Below the pieces are notes generated by a model. That model had not been told where the DNA came from and did no database searches. It saw only the letters and a list, made by a program, of their open reading frames with translations. Source: Escherichia coli (GTDB lineage: Bacteria; Pseudomonadota; Gammaproteobacteria; Enterobacterales; Enterobacteriaceae). From it: a stretch of DNA of 64,000 nucleotides. Shown one piece after another: positions 51,364 through 58,324 of this stretch. Position 1 is the first letter of the stretch; the number at the start of each line of letters is the position of its first letter. The position numbers and the translations under genes were made by a program. Location: NCBI RefSeq assembly GCF_003334405.1, contig NZ_QOWM01000001.1; one strand, written 5' to 3'.

Positions 51364-52377
51364 ATGAATACTGAAGCCACGCACGACCAAAATGAAGCAC
51401 TTACTACCGGCGCTCGCCTGCGTAATGCTCGCGAACAACTAGGACTTAGTCAGCAGGCCGTTGCCGAGCGACTTTGCCTGAAGGTTTCCACGGTACGCGA
51501 CATTGAAGAAGATAAGGCACCCGCCGATCTTGCTTCAACATTCCTGCGCGGATATATCCGCTCTTATGCGCGTCTGGTACATATTCCAGAAGAAGAACTG
51601 CTGCCAGGGCTGGAAAAGCAGGCTCCACTTCGGGCTGCAAAAGTTGCGCCGATGCAGAGTTTTTCCCTCGGTAAACGCCGCAAAAAACGCGACGGCTGGC
51701 TGATGACCTTCACTTGGCTGGTGTTGTTTGTGGTTATCGGCCTGAGCGGTGCCTGGTGGTGGCAAGACCACAAAGCTCAGCAGGAAGAGATCACCACTAT
51801 GGCCGATCAATCTTCGGCGGAACTGAGCAGTAATAGCGAGCAGGGGCAGAGTGTTCCATTAAATACGTCGACAACTACAGACCCGGCTACAACGTCCACG
51901 CCGCCAGCGTCTGTGGATACTACCGCAACCAACACGCAAACACCTGCCGTAACTGCGCCAGCACCAGCTGTTGATCCGCAACAGAATGCGGTTGTTTCGC
52001 CTTCGCAGGCAAATGTTGATACCGCCGCGACCCCGGCACCAACGGCAGCAACAACGCCAGATGGTGCTGCGCCGTTGCCAACCGATCAGGCTGGCGTGAC
52101 CACGCCGGTGGCTGATCCGAATGCGCTGGTGATGAACTTTACTGCCGATTGCTGGCTGGAGGTCACTGATGCTACCGGTAAAAAATTGTTTAGCGGTATG
52201 CAGCGTAAAGACGGTAATTTGAACTTAACCGGCCAGGCACCGTACAAACTGAAAATTGGTGCGCCAGCCGCAGTACAGATCCAGTATCAAGGGAAACCTG
52301 TCGATCTGAGTCGTTTTATCAGAACTAACCAGGTTGCGCGTCTGACCCTCAATGCCGAACAATCACCGGCGCAGTAA
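51364..52377 (+). CDS. rodZ: Cytoskeleton protein RodZ
   Basis: 337 aa, N-terminal HTH, single TM helix, Thr/Pro/Ala-rich low-complexity linker, C-terminal domain. Confidence 0.92.
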
Positions 52378-52403
52378 CAGACGGGTAACGCGGGAGATTT
52401 TTC

Positions 52404-53522
52404 ATGCATAACCAGGCTCCAATTCAACGTAGAAAATCAACACGTATTTACGTTGGGAATGTGCCGATTGGCGATGGTGCTCCCATCGCCGTACAGTCCA
52501 TGACCAATACGCGTACGACAGACGTCGAAGCAACGGTCAATCAAATCAAGGCGCTGGAACGCGTTGGCGCTGATATCGTCCGTGTATCCGTACCGACGAT
52601 GGACGCGGCAGAAGCGTTCAAACTCATCAAACAGCAGGTTAACGTGCCGCTGGTGGCTGACATCCACTTCGACTATCGCATTGCGCTGAAAGTAGCGGAA
52701 TACGGCGTCGATTGTCTGCGTATTAACCCTGGCAATATCGGTAATGAAGAGCGTATTCGCATGGTGGTTGACTGTGCGCGCGATAAAAACATTCCGATCC
52801 GTATTGGCGTTAACGCCGGATCGCTGGAAAAAGATCTGCAAGAAAAGTATGGCGAACCGACGCCGCAGGCGTTGCTGGAATCTGCCATGCGTCATGTTGA
52901 TCATCTCGATCGCCTGAACTTCGATCAGTTCAAAGTCAGCGTGAAAGCGTCTGACGTCTTCCTCGCTGTTGAGTCTTATCGTTTGCTGGCAAAACAGATC
53001 GATCAGCCGTTGCATCTGGGGATCACCGAAGCCGGTGGTGCGCGCAGCGGGGCAGTAAAATCCGCCATTGGTTTAGGTCTGCTGCTGTCTGAAGGCATCG
53101 GCGACACGCTGCGCGTATCGCTGGCGGCCGATCCGGTCGAAGAGATCAAAGTCGGTTTCGATATTTTGAAATCGCTGCGTATCCGTTCGCGAGGGATCAA
53201 CTTCATCGCCTGCCCGACCTGTTCGCGTCAGGAATTTGATGTTATCGGTACGGTTAACGCGCTGGAGCAACGCCTGGAAGATATCATCACTCCGATGGAC
53301 GTTTCGATTATCGGCTGCGTGGTGAATGGCCCAGGTGAGGCGCTGGTTTCTACACTCGGCGTCACCGGCGGCAACAAGAAAAGCGGCCTCTATGAAGATG
53401 GCGTGCGCAAAGACCGTCTGGACAACAACGATATGATCGACCAGCTGGAAGCACGCATTCGTGCGAAAGCCAGTCAGCTGGACGAAGCGCGTCGAATTGA
53501 CGTTCAGCAGGTTGAAAAATAA
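52404..53522 (+). CDS. ispG: 4-hydroxy-3-methylbut-2-enyl diphosphate synthase IspG (GcpE)
   Basis: 372 aa, [4Fe-4S]-ligand cysteines (CPTCSR ... GCVVNGPGE). Confidence 0.95.
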
Positions 53523-53613
53523 TAACGTGATGGGAAGCGCCTCGCTTCCCGTGTATGATTGAACCCGCATGGCTCCCGAAACATTGAGGGAAGCGTTGAG
53601 GGTTCATTTTTAT
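53523..53613 (+). ncRNA. sroE: Possible SroE-like small RNA / structured ispG 3' UTR
   Basis: Approx. 90-nt segment directly after the ispG stop with hairpin GGGAAGCG-cc-TCGCTTCCC and a second stem ending in ATTTTTAT. SroE is reported in the gcpE-hisS spacer (from memory). Confidence 0.35.
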
Positions 53614-53632
53614 ATTCAGAAAGAGAATAAAC

Positions 53633-55545: not shown

Positions 55546-55555
55546 GAGGGACCCG

Positions 55556-56734
55556 ATGCAATTGCGTAAATTACTGCTGCCAGGACTGCTTTCCGTTACC
55601 CTTTTAAGCGGCTGTTCGCTGTTTAACAGCGAAGAAGATGTGGTAAAGATGTCCCCATTGCCAACCGTTGAAAACCAGTTTACGCCGACCACGGCGTGGA
55701 GCACTTCCGTTGGTAGCGGCATTGGCAACTTCTATTCCAATCTTCATCCGGCACTGGCGGACAACGTTGTCTATGCAGCGGACCGCGCTGGTTTAGTAAA
55801 AGCGCTGAATGCGGATGATGGCAAAGAAATCTGGTCTGTCAGCCTGGCCGAGAAAGATGGCTGGTTCTCTAAAGAGCCTGCATTACTTTCTGGCGGTGTG
55901 ACCGTGTCTGGTGGGCATGTCTACATTGGCAGCGAAAAGGCGCAGGTTTACGCGCTGAATACCAGCGATGGTACTGTGGCATGGCAAACTAAAGTCGCGG
56001 GTGAAGCACTTTCGCGCCCGGTGGTCAGCGACGGTCTGGTGTTAATCCACACCAGTAACGGTCAGTTACAAGCGCTGAACGAAGCTGACGGCGCTGTCAA
56101 ATGGACAGTTAACCTCGATATGCCTTCGCTCTCTTTGCGTGGCGAGTCTGCGCCGGCAACGGCTTTTGGTGCGGCCGTCGTGGGGGGCGATAATGGTCGC
56201 GTCAGCGCAGTGCTGATGGAACAGGGCCAGATGATTTGGCAGCAGCGTATTTCCCAGGCGACCGGTTCTACCGAAATTGACCGTCTGAGCGATGTTGACA
56301 CGACTCCCGTCGTTGTTAACGGCGTTGTTTTCGCGCTGGCCTATAATGGTAACCTGACGGCGCTTGATCTGCGCAGTGGTCAGATTATGTGGAAACGCGA
56401 ACTGGGTTCGGTGAATGATTTCATCGTCGACGGCAATCGCATCTATCTGGTCGATCAAAATGACCGGGTGATGGCGTTGACCATTGATGGCGGCGTTACG
56501 CTGTGGACACAAAGCGATCTGCTGCATCGCCTGCTGACTTCTCCGGTGCTGTATAATGGCAACCTGGTGGTCGGTGACAGTGAAGGTTATCTGCACTGGA
56601 TTAACGTCGAAGATGGTCGTTTCGTTGCCCAGCAAAAAGTTGATAGTTCCGGTTTCCAGACTGAACCGGTTGCCGCTGACGGCAAACTGCTGATCCAGGC
56701 AAAAGACGGAACCGTGTACTCTATTACACGTTAA
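55556..56734 (+). CDS. bamB: Outer membrane protein assembly factor BamB (lipoprotein)
   Basis: 392 aa, lipobox LLSGCS, beta-propeller repeats. Confidence 0.93.
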   Translation: MQLRKLLLPGLLSVTLLSGCSLFNSEEDVVKMSPLPTVENQFTPTTAWSTSVGSGIGNFYSNLHPALADNVVYAADRAGLVKALNADDGKEIWSVSLAEKDGWFSKEPALLSGGVTVSGGHVYIGSEKAQVYALNTSDGTVAWQTKVAGEALSRPVVSDGLVLIHTSNGQLQALNEADGAVKWTVNLDMPSLSLRGESAPATAFGAAVVGGDNGRVSAVLMEQGQMIWQQRISQATGSTEIDRLSDVDTTPVVVNGVVFALAYNGNLTALDLRSGQIMWKRELGSVNDFIVDGNRIYLVDQNDRVMALTIDGGVTLWTQSDLLHRLLTSPVLYNGNLVVGDSEGYLHWINVEDGRFVAQQKVDSSGFQTEPVAADGKLLIQAKDGTVYSITR

Positions 56735-56851
56735 TCGTCTCTGTCGTTCACTTTGAAAACGGCTCCTGGACAGGGGCCGTTTTCCTGTTTTTAACAACGA
56801 CGCGAATATAGCGTGCGTTGTCTGATGATTTATAAAAATGAGGCTTTAAAC

Positions 56852-58324
56852 ATGGTACCTGTGGTCGCGCTTGTCGGGCGCCCTAACGTAGGAAAATCCA
56901 CGTTATTTAACCGTCTAACTCGCACCCGAGATGCGCTGGTTGCGGATTTCCCGGGTCTGACTCGTGACCGTAAGTACGGTCGTGCGGAAATTGAAGGCCG
57001 TGAGTTTATCTGTATTGATACCGGCGGGATTGATGGCACAGAAGACGGTGTAGAAACCCGCATGGCGGAACAGTCGCTGCTGGCGATTGAAGAAGCGGAC
57101 GTCGTACTGTTTATGGTGGATGCGCGCGCGGGCCTGATGCCGGCAGATGAAGCGATTGCCAAACATCTGCGCTCCCGTGAAAAACCGACCTTCCTGGTGG
57201 CAAACAAAACTGACGGTCTGGATCCCGATCAGGCAGTGGTTGATTTCTACTCGCTTGGTTTAGGTGAAATCTACCCGATCGCCGCGTCTCACGGTCGTGG
57301 CGTATTAAGTCTGCTGGAGCATGTGCTGCTGCCGTGGATGGAAGATCTCGCACCGCAAGAGGAAGTCGACGAAGACGCTGAATACTGGGCGCAATTTGAA
57401 GCGGAAGAGAACGGCGAAGAAGAAGAGGAAGACGACTTCGACCCGCAAAGTCTGCCGATCAAACTGGCGATTGTGGGTCGTCCGAACGTAGGTAAGTCTA
57501 CACTCACTAACCGTATTCTTGGTGAAGAGCGCGTTGTTGTTTACGACATGCCTGGCACGACGCGTGACAGCATCTACATCCCAATGGAACGCGATGGACG
57601 TGAGTATGTGCTCATTGACACCGCTGGCGTACGTAAACGCGGCAAAATCACCGATGCTGTAGAGAAATTCTCCGTAATCAAAACGTTGCAGGCCATTGAA
57701 GACGCCAACGTGGTGATGTTAGTGATTGATGCGCGCGAAGGTATTTCCGATCAGGATCTCTCGCTGCTGGGCTTTATTCTCAATAGTGGGCGCTCACTTG
57801 TCATTGTGGTGAATAAGTGGGATGGCCTGAGTCAGGAAGTGAAAGAGCAGGTGAAAGAAACGCTGGACTTCCGTCTGGGCTTTATCGATTTTGCTCGTGT
57901 GCACTTTATCTCTGCCTTGCACGGCAGTGGTGTTGGTAACTTGTTTGAATCAGTACGTGAAGCGTATGACAGCTCCACCCGTCGTGTGGGGACCTCTATG
58001 CTGACGCGCATCATGACGATGGCTGTTGAAGATCACCAACCGCCGCTGGTACGCGGTCGTCGTGTGAAGCTGAAATATGCCCACGCCGGTGGTTATAACC
58101 CGCCGATTGTGGTGATTCACGGTAATCAGGTGAAAGACCTGCCTGATTCCTACAAGCGCTACTTGATGAACTACTTCCGCAAATCGCTGGACGTAATGGG
58201 ATCGCCGATTCGTATTCAGTTCAAAGAAGGGGAAAACCCGTATGCGAATAAGCGTAACACCCTGACGCCAACCCAGATGCGTAAACGTAAGCGTCTGATG
58301 AAGCACATCAAGAAAAATAAATAA
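56852..58324 (+). CDS. der: Ribosome-associated GTPase Der (EngA), tandem GTPase domains
   Basis: 490 aa from the ATG at 56852 ([17 protein letters not shown]...). Two G1 motifs GRPNVGKS, acidic linker, C-terminal KH-like domain. Confidence 0.93.

Follow-up and report, generated by a model that had tools for sequence, protein, structure and literature searches.

Linkers between protein domains that are rich in proline, threonine and alanine, or in acidic residues, exhibit a biased amino acid composition and no fixed structure; their sequences drift fast while keeping that composition, and slippage makes their lengths polymorphic. We describe two such linkers in a 64,000-nucleotide (nt) stretch of the Escherichia coli contig NZ_QOWM01000001.1 (assembly GCF_003334405.1), which we refer to as the window: a Thr/Pro/Ala-rich segment encoded by rodZ and an acidic segment encoded by der (engA). 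The two have features in common with the Pro/Thr-rich linkers of secreted multi-domain enzymes, although RodZ is a membrane-anchored cytoskeletal adaptor and Der a cytoplasmic GTPase. Both segments are very probably intrinsically flexible inter-domain spacers in intact genes. The odd composition of the DNA that encodes them is the codon footprint of a biased amino acid composition, and not of another genetic element.

Close relatives of both segments have been described. The periplasmic part of E. coli RodZ has a disordered region ahead of its folded beta domain (PMC6946637), and nuclear magnetic resonance of the Bacillus subtilis RodZ ectodomain, as summarised in the same paper, also found a disordered region and then a beta domain. 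The window encodes the same protein with the same segment, and nothing in it is different in kind. Cross-linking in E. coli indicated that the disordered region mediates contacts of RodZ with itself (Ikebe et al. 2018, as cited in PMC6946637), and truncations of the periplasmic part lower the number of MreB polymers (PMC6052060). A segment of Streptococcus pneumoniae RodZ is classed as a Ser/Thr-rich linker among intrinsically disordered regions, and this streptococcal linker is O-glucosylated (PMC11092751); its likeness to the E. coli segment is one of composition alone. For EngA (Der), an acidic linker between the domains GD1 and GD2 is described in bioRxiv 10.1101/2019.12.24.888222, and the f and non-f groups of EngA are mentioned in PMC8696166. 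The window Der has the long linker of the "non-firmicute" type and exhibits nothing different in kind from it. Linker length and C-terminal extension of EngA are given as species-specific variations by Tomar et al. (2012), as that work is cited in PMC4245960 and PMC9791819. In 50S-bound EngA, GD1 and GD2 take a pseudo-two-fold arrangement, and Der residues 170-194 (the "GD1-GD2 linker") could not be modelled in the cryo-electron microscopy map (PMC4245960). Both linker features have thus been published already, and their observation here is ordinary and descriptive. What is added for RodZ is a population view, consisting of allele classes, ratios of nonsynonymous to synonymous diversity (pN/pS) and natural microhomology deletions.

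The identity of the locus was established from the list of open reading frames (ORFs), a megablast search covering every complete E. coli genome, and the way RefSeq annotates its best match, all of which agree. The gene order in the window is ndk-rlmN-rodZ-ispG-hisS-yfgM-bamB-der-yfgJ, with xseA on the other strand. Both genes of interest, and all parts of them described below, lie on the plus strand. The rodZ coding sequence (51364..52377), identified by its ORF and RefSeq match, encodes the cytoskeleton protein RodZ of 337 amino acids (aa) and is 100% identical to the annotated rodZ of E. coli 300709. The der coding sequence (56852..58324) encodes a ribosome-biogenesis GTPase of 490 aa. The ATG at 56852 is the annotated and structurally characterised start, and chain X of PDB entry 3j8g matches the window Der from end to end at equal length (490 aa); the GTG at 56813 is merely the start of the mechanically longest ORF (503 aa). 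For all of the 5426 complete genomes of E. coli, RefSeq annotates rodZ and der at the ndk-der block, and rodZ is single-copy between rlmN and ispG, with one per genome and unchanged neighbours in this collection. Pfam domains bracket both segments. The gene names assigned in a preliminary description of the window, made without database searches, are therefore right, and both linkers sit in normal, intact housekeeping genes.

The RodZ segment is delimited by recognisable structure on both sides. A cytoplasmic helix-turn-helix (HTH) domain occupies residues 18-79 (51415..51600; Pfam HTH_25, E-value = 4e-14), a hydrophobic stretch at about residues 112-133 (51697..51762; boundaries according to PMC6946637) forms the transmembrane helix, and the folded periplasmic beta domain RodZ_C occupies residues 256-328 (52129..52347; Pfam PF13464, E-value = 5e-24). 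The whole spacer from the end of the transmembrane helix to the start of RodZ_C comprises residues 134-255 (51763-52128). Within it, the periplasmic Thr/Pro/Ala-rich linker, predicted to be disordered, covers residues 155-255 (51826..52128), where no Pfam domain is found, and an entropy scan of the protein flags residues 155-256. The preliminary description had placed a periplasmic linker of about 100 residues, rich in Thr, Pro and Ala, at 51814-52130. This stands: the interval is in frame with rodZ, lies between the transmembrane helix and RodZ_C, and corresponds to residues 151-255 plus 2 nt, with a translation ending in VADPNAL. Thr, Pro and Ala account for 57 of these 105 residues (54%, against 22% in the remaining protein; binomial tail 6e-13). 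Lys, Arg, His, Phe, Trp, Tyr, Cys, Met and Ile are all missing from the segment. Ser and Thr together contribute 31 of the 105 residues; to our knowledge, no O-glucosylation of the linker is known for E. coli RodZ. The Thr/Pro/Ala-rich label fits residues 155-255 and does not extend to residues 134-154 of the spacer, which are different, being conserved and predicted to be helical. In an AlphaFold model computed from a shallow alignment (25 close relatives), residues 155-249 exhibit predicted local distance difference test (pLDDT) scores of 31-35 without secondary structure, and RodZ_C exhibits scores of 79-88 and consists of beta strands throughout.

In Der, Pfam places MMR_HSR1 domains at residues 5-119 and 205-322 and a KH_dom-like domain at residues 378-458. 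Broader FeoB_N matches cover residues 5-156 and 204-366, and two GxxxxGK[ST] P-loop motifs lie 200 residues apart. The GD1-GD2 linker, between the two MMR_HSR1 or FeoB_N matches, comprises residues 166-202 (57347..57457). The acidic inter-domain peptide quoted in the preliminary description is exact in its letters and was displaced in its position: 57358-57446 is 1-2 nt off, one base out of frame and without sense in translation, the true interval being 57359..57448 (residues 170-199). It contains 17 Asp or Glu in 30 residues (57%, against 13% in the remaining protein; binomial tail 1.6e-8). In 20,000 shuffles of each protein neither this bias nor that of RodZ was reached even once, which, together with the entropy scan, bears out the compositional bias of both segments. 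The term low-complexity suits only part of the Der linker. Complexity is low only at about residues 185-195, within the poly-Glu/Asp core (residues 185-196, 57404..57439) that is the truly low-complexity and length-variable part, and the rest carries motifs conserved in Enterobacterales. An acidic helix with a conserved Tyr-Trp pair is predicted by AlphaFold, with moderate confidence, at residues 171-187 (57362..57412). The mean pLDDT of the Der model is 88, with values above 90 in the domains and 60-78 in the linker. The entropy scan also flags a basic C-terminal tail at residues 463-490 (58238..58321), and the net charge over the last 32 residues is +9.

The two linkers evolve in different ways. 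We compared the operon of the window with those of eight E. coli genomes spread over the ranking by rodZ identity. In these nine operons the RodZ linker (residues 151-255) exhibits the highest nucleotide diversity of the rlmN-der stretch (pi = 0.047). Its pN/pS is 0.36, against 0 and 0.02 in the two flanking parts of RodZ and 0.005-0.08 in the neighbouring genes. All amino acid differences in RodZ but one fall within residues 155-250, the exception being D262S of a single strain, where RodZ_C begins; the HTH domain exhibits no amino acid change. The RodZ linker also contains the one indel in the operon (6 nt, 51835-51840). In E. coli the linker alleles fall into three classes or more. DNA and protein alignments locate the most divergent sub-segment between these classes at 51826..51912, where 29 codons hold about 11 replacements and a deletion of 2 codons. 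The substitutions in the linker are scattered point changes that keep to the Ser/Thr/Pro/Ala/Asn/Gln class.

As the nine operons had been picked by rodZ, the comparison was repeated over the whole collection, using queries of equal length (317 nt) against the 5426 complete genomes. With the rodZ linker as query, 1317 of the 5426 genomes exhibit less than 95% identity, 201 of them less than 90%. The corresponding number is 48 for a query centred on the der linker, and a single genome, of poor assembly, for the first 317 nt of rodZ. In a set of 120 close homologues, from Escherichia, Citrobacter and Salmonella, the RodZ linker has a mean identity of 74% and a length of 66-123 aa; the N-terminal part of RodZ and RodZ_C are 97% identical (mean of 97.6% for RodZ_C) and hardly ever change in length. 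No other part of the operon evolves as fast as the RodZ linker.

Changes in linker length include large deletions. In a natural E. coli variant (P0075, locus L015), a 150-nt in-frame deletion (51882..52031) removes 50 aa, and outside the deletion this allele has no mismatch to that of the window. A 6-nt direct repeat, CCCGGC, is present at the junction (51882-51887 and 52032-52037). A second in-frame deletion, of 75 nt (25 aa), occurs in a second allele class and has its junction in the 8-nt repeat GCACCAGC. Among the contigs read, the 150-nt deletion is present in 3 and the 75-nt deletion in 5, the latter from at least two different samples. Such junctions are the mark of slippage, or of deletion mediated by microhomology, between short, repeated strings of Pro/Ala codons. 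Given such large natural in-frame deletions, the RodZ linker tolerates length change. Composition and approximate length of the RodZ linker are conserved, its sequence drifts, and indels are tolerated. Linker length does vary among orthologues, the point by which the preliminary description had proposed to check itself, and it does so in both proteins: over 66-123 aa in the RodZ homologues and, as described next, by 0 to +11 aa in Der.

Unlike the RodZ linker, the Der linker is constrained in sequence. Over its 30 codons the nine operons exhibit no amino acid change, despite a synonymous diversity (pS) of 0.17. At a larger distance, among 120 close Der homologues ranging from Escherichia to Cedecea, Pantoea and Erwinia, it is the least conserved part of Der, with 63% identity against 92-95% for the domains in the distant half of the set. 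Its length varies in Enterobacterales by 0 to +11 aa, and the insertions (2-11 aa) are all located in or beside the poly-Glu tract. The flanks of the tract are conserved: LPWM(D/E) and an acidic stretch with an invariant Tyr-Trp at its end on one side, F(D/N)P..LPIK on the other. The charge is also kept from Escherichia to Erwinia and Pantoea (14-23 Asp/Glu against 1-4 Lys/Arg). We found no mention of the Tyr-Trp helix and F(D/N)P of Enterobacterales in the passages of the EngA literature that we consulted, although Tomar et al. (2012) may have them. In 143 representatives of the EngA family, the two P-loops are 168-357 residues apart (median 178; 200 in E. coli). The linker, with limits as defined in this analysis, spans 7-196 aa and is net negative in 75% of these representatives, longer linkers being more negative (r = -0.77). 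Given these ranges of spacing, charge and length, the E. coli Der linker is a mid-range case of a family-wide EngA trait. Giant acidic linkers of 92-196 residues are observed in four Der homologues (P0267, P0121, P0142 and P0125), the one of 196 residues being made of tandem DSDDDLE-type repeats with a net charge of -75.

The preliminary description had also regarded the underlying DNA as locally repetitive and compositionally biased. The bias is present; repetition is slight. Tandem and dispersed repeats were searched over 51000-58500, with Tandem Repeats Finder at its lowest threshold (30). The sole tandem repeat found is a 9-nt unit, CGGCACCAA, in 2.1 copies at 52034..52052 (score 31); these 19 nt of the rodZ linker encode Ala-Pro-Thr-Ala-Ala-Thr. 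At the same threshold no tandem repeat was found in der, no repeat element was found in 51000-58500, and the dispersed matches to the der linker are chance pairs of GAA-rich sequence. The natural microhomology deletions in rodZ give the remark on repetitive DNA a real consequence, to that extent. Compared with windows of the same size in the 64 kb, the 317 nt of the rodZ linker fall in the 8th-12th percentile of complexity, a moderate position explained by the spread of Thr, Pro and Ala over many synonymous codons. The 90 nt of the der linker are 71% purine and belong to the lowest 0.05-0.1% for linguistic complexity and 3-mer entropy; for the core at 57404..57439 the same two measures fall in the lowest 0.02-0.03%. 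A 54-nt direct repeat with 76% identity also exists within der (57075-57128 and 57684-57737). It stems from the paralogy of GD1 and GD2, with a motif around G3/G4, and is neither mobile nor regulatory.

The complexity of the der stretch, one of the lowest in the window, and a short hairpin pattern resembling a terminator within the rodZ linker (51976-51991) could be taken as marks of an overlapping gene, a small RNA or an inserted repeat element. We give this reading next to no chance. ORFs in the other frames of the linker DNA, on both strands, are only those expected by chance (80 aa at most), and repeat families do not exceed chance. Rfam, searched at gathering and at permissive thresholds (E-value up to 0.1), exhibits no match in the linker DNA and only sroE elsewhere in the span, and a search for tRNA genes in the linkers found none. 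Promoter and terminator patterns are fewer than shuffles would give (6 against 7.7 for terminator-like patterns). Moreover, in all homologues examined both linkers keep an intact reading frame in register, all indels being multiples of three.

Another possible reading attributes the divergence of the RodZ linker to diversifying (positive) selection on a recognised surface, in place of relaxed constraint. The strong clustering of replacements between allele classes and the existence of at least three such classes would agree with it. The pN/pS of the linker is nevertheless below 1, its replacements preserve the Ser/Thr/Pro/Ala/Asn/Gln composition, and natural isolates carry deletions of 25-50 residues. 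In addition, the linker is periplasmic (topology according to PMC6946637), behind the outer membrane and out of reach of antibodies and phage tails. Diversifying selection is thus highly improbable. For Der, a regulatory role deserves more weight, even if we consider it unlikely: the Tyr-Trp helix and F(D/N)P would dock on Der itself or on a partner protein, for example as an RNA-mimicking auto-inhibitor on the basic KH domain or the C-terminal tail. Both motifs are invariant or nearly so in Enterobacterales while the residues between them vary, a helix is predicted at residues 171-187, the nine operons lack replacements at high synonymous divergence, and the same protein possesses the basic tail. 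On the other side, the confidence of that helix is only about 60, and the Tyr-Trp motif was not seen outside Enterobacterales in the sampled EngA representatives. Between linker and tail, the charges correlate weakly in 136 representatives (Spearman -0.21, p = 0.016, uncorrected for phylogeny) and the lengths exhibit no association (Fisher p = 0.84); the weak charge signal neither supports nor excludes a pairing of acidic linker and basic tail. YihI, the only known modulator of Der in E. coli, is reported to bind GD2 and KH and not the linker (PMC8696166), and we dropped the linker as a candidate binding site for this activator on account of that placement. A more specific version, in which the linker of Enterobacterales would be a short linear motif module that docks on the KH domain, the tail or a partner and gates 50S binding or GTPase activation, is distinctly doubtful. 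The putative layout of such a module would be an acidic Tyr-Trp helix and F(D/N)P on either side of a length-variable poly-Glu tract.

Several points weigh against flexible spacers as the explanation of both segments. A conserved and partly helical linker such as that of Der does not fit well with a purely passive spacer, and its 30 codons are a small sample from which to read the lack of replacements. The low pLDDT of the modelled RodZ linker is by itself weak evidence for disorder, since the alignment behind the model is shallow and the known HTH domain scored low too. Choosing the nine operons by rodZ identity biases the comparison between genes toward diversity in rodZ, a bias from which the counts over 5426 genomes are free. 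The literature is itself divided on the importance of the periplasmic part of RodZ, as RodZ 1-142 and RodZ 1-155 still yield rod-shaped cells (PMC6946637), whereas periplasmic truncations leave fewer MreB polymers (PMC6052060).

With these reservations, we favour flexible inter-domain spacers, and infer their roles of tether, reach and RNA repulsion as follows. In RodZ, a stretch of about 100-120 residues in which Thr, Pro, Ala and Ser abound, and which is devoid of basic, aromatic or bulky ones, would form a tether that does not fold. It would hold the small RodZ_C domain off the inner membrane, in the periplasm and near the machinery that synthesises the cell wall, and the disordered region also lets RodZ molecules touch each other, according to the published cross-linking (PMC6946637). 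Selection would act on the composition and approximate length of this tether and not on its exact sequence, which would account for the rapid drift of the linker and for its tolerance of in-frame deletions; the latter would arise by slippage between short repeated strings of Pro/Ala codons. In Der, a linker of about 37 residues would let GD1 swing relative to GD2 and KH as Der goes through its nucleotide cycle and while it is on the 50S subunit, and the strong negative charge of the linker probably keeps it exposed to solvent and away from ribosomal RNA.

The surroundings of the two genes exhibit further features. The rlmN-rodZ spacer (51080-51363, 284 nt) is AT-rich and has a pi of 0.004 in the nine operons, against a pS of 0.03-0.09 in the adjoining genes, which suggests, at the level of sequence, a constrained regulatory region; a sigma-70-like site is found in it at 51239-51268. 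The small RNA sroE (Rfam RF00371, 116.6 bits) at 53522-53613 on the plus strand fills the ispG-hisS spacer. Between bamB and der, also on the plus strand, a GC-rich hairpin of 13 bp with a T run after it (56755-56784) resembles an intrinsic terminator or attenuator, a short way upstream of der. Other Rfam matches in the window are GlmY (2959-3106), naRNA4 (31778-31849), the iscRS stability element (32566-32675) and, on the minus strand, ryfA (40050-40353) and IS128 RNA (40485-40693), all of these elements being known in E. coli. The conserved ndk-der block has strain-dependent flanks (loci L004, L006, L009, L010 and L011). Upstream of ndk in O157:H7, genes for DMSO/selenate reductase replace yfhM-pbpC, and downstream of der other strains have sinH, an intimin-like autotransporter, or a tyrosine recombinase gene. 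Strain P276M (L003, NZ_CP044293.1) has rodZ, rlmN and their neighbours flagged as frameshifted pseudogenes despite its "complete" status. Its rodZ match (H12; 70% coverage, 86% identity) was considered as a broken gene and set aside as a product of poor assembly, the whole neighbourhood being flagged in the same way; these frameshifts are most likely an assembly error, not biology. One E. coli strain has a second, diverged copy of der on the 109-kb plasmid pZ1323HEC0016-2 (NZ_CP148383.1; L014, 5602-7074), with metG and apbC beside it and phage-like genes adjoining. It exhibits 91% identity in the 317-nt query piece and 8 amino acid changes, including E185Q in the linker.

Two odd stretches of the window are thus explained by ordinary protein linkers, and call for no more attention as possible repeats or concealed elements. 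In E. coli, the main site of polymorphism in this operon is the rodZ linker; it is a possible typing marker, and may confuse variant calls based on alignment. The natural shortenings of the RodZ linker by 25-50 residues amount to a free "experiment" in length tolerance, and the conserved aromatic motifs of Der may offer targets of mutation for studying the communication between its GTPase domains.

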